Shown here: positions 1-236 of the stretch, piece after piece
Layout: every line of letters begins with the position of its first letter
Numbering within the stretch: the first letter of the stretch is position 1
Sequence record: K01279.1
DNA from: a phage
Direction: 5' to 3' (one strand)
DNA: 236 bases
Notes under the pieces: model-generated
What the model saw: the letters and a program-made list of their open reading frames with translations, nothing else
What the model was told of the DNA's origin: nothing
The model's database searches: none
Translations under genes and position numbers: made by a program

Positions 1-67
1 CACTGTCGGCGAAGGTAAGTTGATGACTCATGATGAACCCTGTTCTATGGCTCCAGATGACAAACAT
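1..67 (-). CDS. insH: IS5 transposase InsH/Ins5A, N-terminal fragment (5' end only; CDS continues leftward out of the window)
   Basis: Minus-strand ORF with ATG at 67-65 translates MFVIWSHRTGFIMSHQLTFADS..., which I recall as the 338-aa annotated form. An internal in-frame ATG at 31-29 gives MSHQLTFADS..., the 326-aa form, and is preceded by an AGGG Shine-Dalgarno-like motif 6 nt upstream. An in-frame stop (TGA, plus-strand 77-79) lies just upstream of the 67-65 start. Which start is used cannot be decided from sequence. Confidence 0.75.
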   Translation of the reverse strand, partial: MFVIWSHRTGFIMSHQLTFADS

Positions 68-99
68 GATCTCACATCAGGGACTTGTTCGCACCTTCC
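68..99 (-). promoter_or_regulatory. Probable transposase promoter / 5' leader region between the terminal inverted repeat and the insH start
   Basis: Inferred from position only: IS transposase promoters usually lie partly within the terminal inverted repeat upstream of the transposase start. No good sigma70 -35/-10 pair could be identified by eye. A GATC (Dam) site at 68-71 abuts the long-form start codon. Confidence 0.3.
84..99. repeat. IS5 16-bp terminal inverted repeat (transposase-proximal end)
   Basis: Plus strand CTTGTTCGCACCTTCC, reverse complement GGAAGGTGCGAACAAG, matching the IS5 terminal repeat as I recall it. The partner repeat at the other end of the element is outside the window. 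Confidence 0.8.
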
Positions 100-103
100 C
101 TAA
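100..103. other. Putative IS5 target site / one copy of the 4-bp target-site duplication (CTAA)
   Basis: CTAA immediately abuts the IS5 terminus and fits the known IS5 target preference (YTAR, typically CTAA/CTAG). The second copy at the other end of the element is not in the window, so the duplication itself is not observed. Confidence 0.45.
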
Positions 104-159
104 GTGATCCCCATGTAATGAATAAAAAGCAGTAATTAATACATCTGTTTCATTTGAAG

Positions 160-202
160 CGCGAAAGCTAAAGTTTTCGCATTTATCGTGAACGCTTTCG
201 CG
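160..202. repeat. Perfect 9-bp inverted repeat CGCGAAAGC (160-168) / GCTTTCGCG (194-202) with a 25-bp spacer, inside a cluster of TTTCG/CGAAA motifs; function unknown
   Basis: Seen directly in the sequence. Further TTTCG-containing copies occur at 174-180 (TTTTCGC) and 203-211 (TTTTTCGTG). Confidence 0.4.
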
Positions 203-236
203 TTTTTCGTGCGCCGCTTCACAGCGGTCACAATAC

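Follow-up and report, generated by a model that had tools for sequence, protein, structure and literature searches.

The cluster of TTTCG/CGAAA motifs at positions 146-221 of the DNA analyzed here almost certainly corresponds to the MuA transposase-binding sites R1, R2, and R3 of the right end (attR) of phage Mu, as judged by sequence comparison. The DNA, hereafter called the window, is a phage stretch of 236 nucleotides (sequence record K01279.1). An array of MuA sites at the Mu right end is already known, and its occurrence here is ordinary. The first-pass annotation, made from the letters of the window, had proposed that the cluster is a binding array for a repressor or an activator; an array of protein-binding sites it remains, but both the protein and the purpose had to be reassigned, from a repressor or activator of a promoter to MuA transposase.

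MuA sites in the motif cluster

The four motif-bearing elements were found where the first-pass annotation had placed them, and it was correct that only the element at 159-168 is in reverse orientation. TTTCG occurs four times over both strands (162-166 on the minus strand, 175-179, 196-200, and 205-209), whereas 0.85 +/- 0.90 occurrences were expected, and four were reached in one of 200 dinucleotide-preserving shuffles. The perfect 9-bp inverted repeat CGCGAAAGC / GCTTTCGCG (160-168 / 194-202), which had also been pointed out, was confirmed and extends to 12 nt with 92% complementarity and one mismatch (157-168 / 194-205, 25 nt apart). We further detected a second inverted repeat (161-169 / 172-180) and a 21-nt direct repeat of 81% (170-190 / 191-211). 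The sites assigned to the region and the elements that they hold are as follows.

146-167, plus strand: R3, TGTTTCATTTGAAGCGCGAAAG, identical to R3 of Mu; holds the element 159-168 and the left arm of the inverted repeat
159-168: element GCGCGAAAGC, the inner half of R3, the one inverted site
174-194, minus strand: R2, CGTTCACGATAAATGCGAAAA, 21 bp as against 22 bp in Mu (CGTTTCAC...); holds the element 174-180
174-180: element TTTTCGC, the CGAAAA core of R2
194-202: element GCTTTCGCG, the final base of R2 together with the CGAAAG core of R1; forms the right arm of the inverted repeat
195-216, minus strand: R1, CGGCGCACGAAAAACGCGAAAG, 6-27 bp from the terminus and identical to R1 of Mu; holds the elements 194-202 and 203-211
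203-211: element TTTTTCGTG, a second, degenerate CGAAA in the outer half of R1
217-221, plus strand: Mu right terminus ...CTTCA-3', with the terminal CA at 220-221 as the element boundary, where the Mu record ends
222-236: flanking non-Mu DNA, CAGCGGTCACAATAC, without homology to Mu or Mu-like phages

The 22-bp MuA consensus YGTTTCAYTNNAARYRCGAAAR, reportedly established by Craigie, Mizuuchi, and Mizuuchi in 1984, was re-derived from the six Mu sites and cross-checked against the annotation of phage D108, whose record labels the homologues of R1 and R2 as 'transposase-binding site based upon homology to Mu consensus YMyNwRAARYRCGAAAR'. When the six Mu sites were aligned, they were invariant at positions 12-13 (AA) and 17-21 (CGAAA), and this invariant CGAAA core is the TTTCG/CGAAA motif of the first-pass annotation. 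R3 at 146-167 on the plus strand matched the 22-bp consensus without mismatch, and no match was obtained in any of 200 shuffles. The 11-nt inner half, AARYRCGAAAR, was found without mismatch exactly at 157-167 on the plus strand and at 174-184 and 195-205 on the minus strand; with one mismatch allowed, 0.11 matches were expected and no shuffle contained three. R1 and R2 are arranged head-to-tail and point inward from the terminus, and R3 is opposite. The 21-nt direct repeat is R2 matched against R1. R3 and R1 have one inner-half variant in common (AARCGCGAAAG followed by C) and are turned towards each other, so that their cores form the perfect inverted repeat, a by-product of the inversion of R3 relative to R1 and R2.

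The same inner half marks the other end of the phage. In the Mu reference, it occurs without mismatch at 17-27, 122-132, and 162-172 of the left end (L1-L3), and all matches in the 1.3-1.5 kb examined per side fall at these three positions and the three right-end positions. At both Mu ends, the outermost 11-nt copy is found 17-27 bp inside the terminus, so that R1 mirrors L1 (6-27). Transposase end sites would be expected to show mirror symmetry of this kind. An adaptor published for the Mu right end and used with purified MuA is identical to window 172-221 but for the one base missing from R2 (PMC4005685).

The Mu right end is described as carrying R1, R2, and R3, and the left end L1, L2, and L3, as MuA sites, three per end (PMC3145075; PMC3362531). 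A MuA monomer occupies each site and bends the DNA by 80-90 degrees; L1 together with R1 and R2 is enough for a stable synaptic complex, and R3 can be dispensed with genetically (PMC3145075). MuA I-beta and I-gamma bind the Mu ends, and a 50-bp R1-R2 segment is enough in vitro; the core of the transpososome is a MuA tetramer that synapses the two ends with protomers on R1/R2 and acts in trans at the end cleavage sites, the terminal CA being the position of MuA cleavage and strand transfer (PMC3362531). Applied to the window, MuA on R1-R3 and MuA on L1-L3 would come together in a transpososome with a tetrameric core. This complex would nick the plus strand after the terminal CA, that is, after A221, and the 3'-OH at A221 would then be joined to target DNA by strand transfer. 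From the match to these sites, we infer that the array serves transpososome assembly rather than promoter control.

IS5, the end of mom, and the flanking DNA

By alignment, three unrelated pieces make up the window, namely one end of IS5, the right end of Mu, and DNA flanking the latter, and a promoter-centred reading of this mosaic would be wrong. The features upstream of the MuA sites are as follows.

1-99, minus strand: left terminal 99 bp of IS5, with 99% identity to thousands of annotated E. coli IS5 copies
29-31, minus strand: ATG of the InsH transposase, of which the first 10 codons (MSHQLTFADS) are present; the frame continues past the window edge
84-99: 16-bp terminal inverted repeat of IS5, GGAAGGTGCGAACAAG; the minus strand reads GGAAGGTGCGAAYAAG
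99-107, plus strand: last two codons and stop of mom, CCT AAG TGA (P, K, stop), with the stop at 105-107
100-103: CTAA, an IS5 target tetranucleotide adjoining the IS5 end and equal to Mu 36595-36598

In BLAST and alignment, positions 100-221 were 99.2% identical to Mu (AF083977) 36595-36717, the closing 123 bp of a genome of 36,717 bp. The homology ends exactly at the phage terminus ...CTTCA, at base 221, and the alignment reaches the last Mu base, 36717; in the alignment of right ends, no homology to Mu or Mu-like phages was found beyond 221. Because every Mu-like sequence examined diverges directly after CTTCA, base 221 is read as the terminus of the element and 222-236 as flanking DNA. The Mu part of the window closes with CA and the Mu left end opens with TG, giving the terminal 5'-TG...CA-3'.

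The IS5 homology stops at base 99 when aligned to an annotated insH6 copy. Plasmid matches that reach base 119 might be taken to carry IS5 past 99, but by alignment their extension is a chance similarity of an unrelated flank. The IS5 part differs from common E. coli IS5 at window position 75, where the minus strand reads GATGTGAG and a compared plasmid copy reads GATATGAG; at window position 46 it has T where the plasmid copy has C. The mom coding sequence ends at Mu 36602, corresponding to window 107, and the C-terminus of Mom is ...VQPYPK followed by the stop. On this alignment, IS5 interrupts mom two codons before the stop and 122 bp from the Mu terminus. All three MuA sites are present because the insertion lies outside R3. 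The left end and the MuA gene of this Mu copy fall beyond the window.

CTAA is a listed IS5 target sequence (Table 3 of PMC5493358), and the CTAA at 100-103 is presumably one copy of the 4-bp target-site duplication. This tetranucleotide is native to Mu, and the second copy of the duplication would lie beyond the window. If the insertion is a simple one, a second CTAA followed by ...CAGCCATACC of mom would be expected at the far junction beyond the window. If CTAA is duplicated there, reading on from mom into the far IS5 end would probably lengthen Mom slightly at its C-terminus, not truncate it. A literature search found no early sequencing papers on IS5 in Mu.

The sequence of 104-236 was present in 41 of the 5,426 complete E. 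coli genomes, each time beside mom, and the motif region is mobile-element DNA and no core-genome regulatory region. No complete E. coli genome or PLSDB plasmid spans at least 80% of the window, and the E. coli, phage, and plasmid collections contained no 100% match to its Mu part. The string across the Mu/flank junction had no match in the genome or metagenome contig collections, and the IS5/Mu junction had no exact match in the genome or viral contig collections. That these junctions are absent points to a construct made in the laboratory, a strain that has not been sampled, or a partial record of early date.

Coding capacity had been named in the first-pass annotation as a finding that would speak against its reading; the motif region is non-coding in the Mu record, in which no CDS is annotated after mom. 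A GTG-initiated ORF of 31 aa lies over the MuA sites on the minus strand (136-231), and in PhiR68_1 a short minus-strand hypothetical protein is annotated over the homologous end. The 31-aa ORF is most likely an over-call.

The R2 variant and Mu-like right ends

The sole difference between the Mu part of the window and Mu is one missing base, by which Mu GTGAAACGC becomes GTGAACGC in the A-run at 191-192 (~190-193). The deletion falls inside R2 and is absent from Mu, SfMu, and all E. coli prophages. R1 lies at 6-27 from the end as in Mu, and R2 lies at 28-48 where 28-49 is expected, so that the R1-R2 register is 21 bp as against 22 bp in Mu. R2 has four mismatches here and one in Mu, the increase being in the outer half. 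This particular copy may bind MuA or assemble less well; alternatively, the base may be missing through an error of sequencing. Phage D108 (GQ357916, locus ~1255-1262) has the same one-base-shorter run in R2, with an extra T in the R3-R2 spacer, while its relatives Mu_3F6, Yersinia vB_YpM_3, and PhiR68_1 have Mu-like lengths at both the R2 run and the spacer. Since D108 shares the shorter run and its close relatives do not, the variant would be either tolerated or a recurrent homopolymer miscall; its presence in D108, a viable phage, hints that it can be tolerated. We consider it unlikely that the R2 deletion and the IS5 in mom both truly belong to a Mu derivative of natural or laboratory origin. 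If this were true, attR of the window would be a natural spacing variant that tests the tolerance of helical phasing between the R1- and R2-bound MuA protomers.

We aligned eight right ends, those of the window, Mu, SfMu, D108, Mu_3F6, Yersinia phage vB_YpM_3, and two E. coli prophages. The cores of R3, R2, and R1 and the terminal 18 bp were invariant in all eight; the conservation of the motifs across related genomes, on which the first-pass annotation had made its reading depend, thus held for Mu-like right ends. The spacers and the N positions of the consensus vary. Substitutions were located in the R3-R2 spacer (CTAAA vs TTTGA or TTTTGA), at the variable positions of R2 (ATTTATCGTG vs ATTTTATTTG), and at one position of R1, and upstream of R3 the Mu/SfMu and D108 lineages are barely alignable. 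Invariant cores separated by variable spacers indicate selection on discrete protein-binding sites.

Proteus phage vB_PmiA_PM1 (PQ065999.1), classified in the Autographiviridae, also has a copy of the 50-bp R1-R2 end of Mu, at 42010-42059 and with 98% identity, which sits in an annotated 'hypothetical protein' near the genome end. This copy is most likely an adaptor from a MuA-transposon library left in the assembly and carries no biology.

Alternative readings and known systems

Chance clustering of a short AT-rich pentamer would explain the motif density without any protein, and the one shuffle that also contained four TTTCG shows that such a count can arise. However, the 11-nt and 22-nt consensus matches were never equalled in shuffles, and the motif positions are kept across phages and mirrored at the Mu left end; the probability of this explanation is negligible. 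The inverted repeats might instead form RNA hairpins that act as an intrinsic terminator for the mom transcript, possibly as a secondary role of the region. Two terminator-like patterns indeed lie on the plus strand 3' of mom, at 161-180 (8 pairs, then ATTTATCG) and 187-202 (6 pairs, then TTTTTCGT), against 0.1 in shuffles, and the hairpin at 161-180 is part of the minimum free energy (MFE) fold. Nevertheless, the overall fold is unexceptional (z = -1.46; 14 of 200 shuffles fold equally well), the 9-bp inverted repeat is unused in the MFE structure, and the U-tracts are poor. The stems are the conserved MuA-site cores, and the hairpins arise because these cores are opposed. The D108-lineage changes C168T and C180T merely turn pairs into G-U wobbles and are non-compensatory, and Rfam returned no family match (best E-values of 0.25-0.56, far below the gathering scores). 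A terminator is accordingly improbable, and the hairpins at 161-180 and 187-202 are probably incidental.

The motif density in both orientations, which is real, could also reflect an operator array for a host transcription factor such as GlpR, PurR, or CRP at a nearby promoter, and there is a loose resemblance between TTCG/CGAAA and the core of the GlpR half-site, to which the first-pass annotation had pointed. We searched the window with consensus strings for the three regulators, a weaker test than a scan with curated position weight matrices. WATGTTCGWT, which we take to be the GlpR half-site, gave no match at up to two mismatches, where 0.99 would be expected by chance, and the PurR box had no match in the window either. 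For CRP, the single match, at 208-223 with two mismatches, lies across the junction of Mu and flank and is no better than chance, being equalled in 34 of 200 shuffles. A promoter scan found no sigma-70-like promoter in the window. Moreover, the locus is a phage terminus beside mom with no glp or host promoter, a context that alone excludes the glp operon, and every motif is explained by the MuA sites; a host operator is therefore very improbable. An IS5-activated glpFK promoter, to which an IS5 end at a CTAA target and the GlpR hint might point, was ruled out because the non-IS5 part is Mu by BLAST. As a role additional to that of MuA, the lysogenic repressor of Mu (Rep/c) may bind the same sites and keep the prophage end inactive; the case for this consists of one sentence in one paper, which places specific sites for the repressor within the ends of Mu (PMC3820752), and we consider it possible but somewhat doubtful.

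With the cluster assigned to MuA, the value of the result is one of annotation, and there is little in it for discovery: few transposase-binding sites have been studied as thoroughly as the Mu ends, of which the R1-R2 segment is sold as a commercial reagent. It also implies that a dense bidirectional motif cluster near a sequence discontinuity should be checked as the end of a mobile element before it is read as an operator.

GlpR operators of the glp regulon have only the TTCG/CGAA tetranucleotide in common with the window, and their repeat length, spacing, and genomic context are all unlike those of the array. The attR of Mu (AF083977 / NC_000929, ~36642-36717) and the window, in contrast, have the same site orientations, the same distance from R1 to the terminus, the same terminal CA, and the same upstream neighbour, the end of mom. 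They differ in that the window has an R2 outer half one base shorter, an IS5 122 bp from the terminus, and other flanking DNA. SfMu, D108, Mu_3F6, PhiR68_1, and vB_YpM_3 share the three-site layout, the invariant CGAAA cores, and, save for one T/C change, the terminal 27 bp of the window. In the D108 lineage, the R3-R2 spacer and the variable positions of R2 are different, and a further gene lies between mom and the end; the window is of the Mu/SfMu sequence type. Other DDE transposons, such as Tn7 and CAST elements with their TnsB sites, also carry several transposase-binding repeats of ~20 bp, arranged asymmetrically at each end, that nucleate a multimeric transpososome. Their repeat sequence and their transposase are other than those of Mu, and the likeness would be one of functional analogy only.
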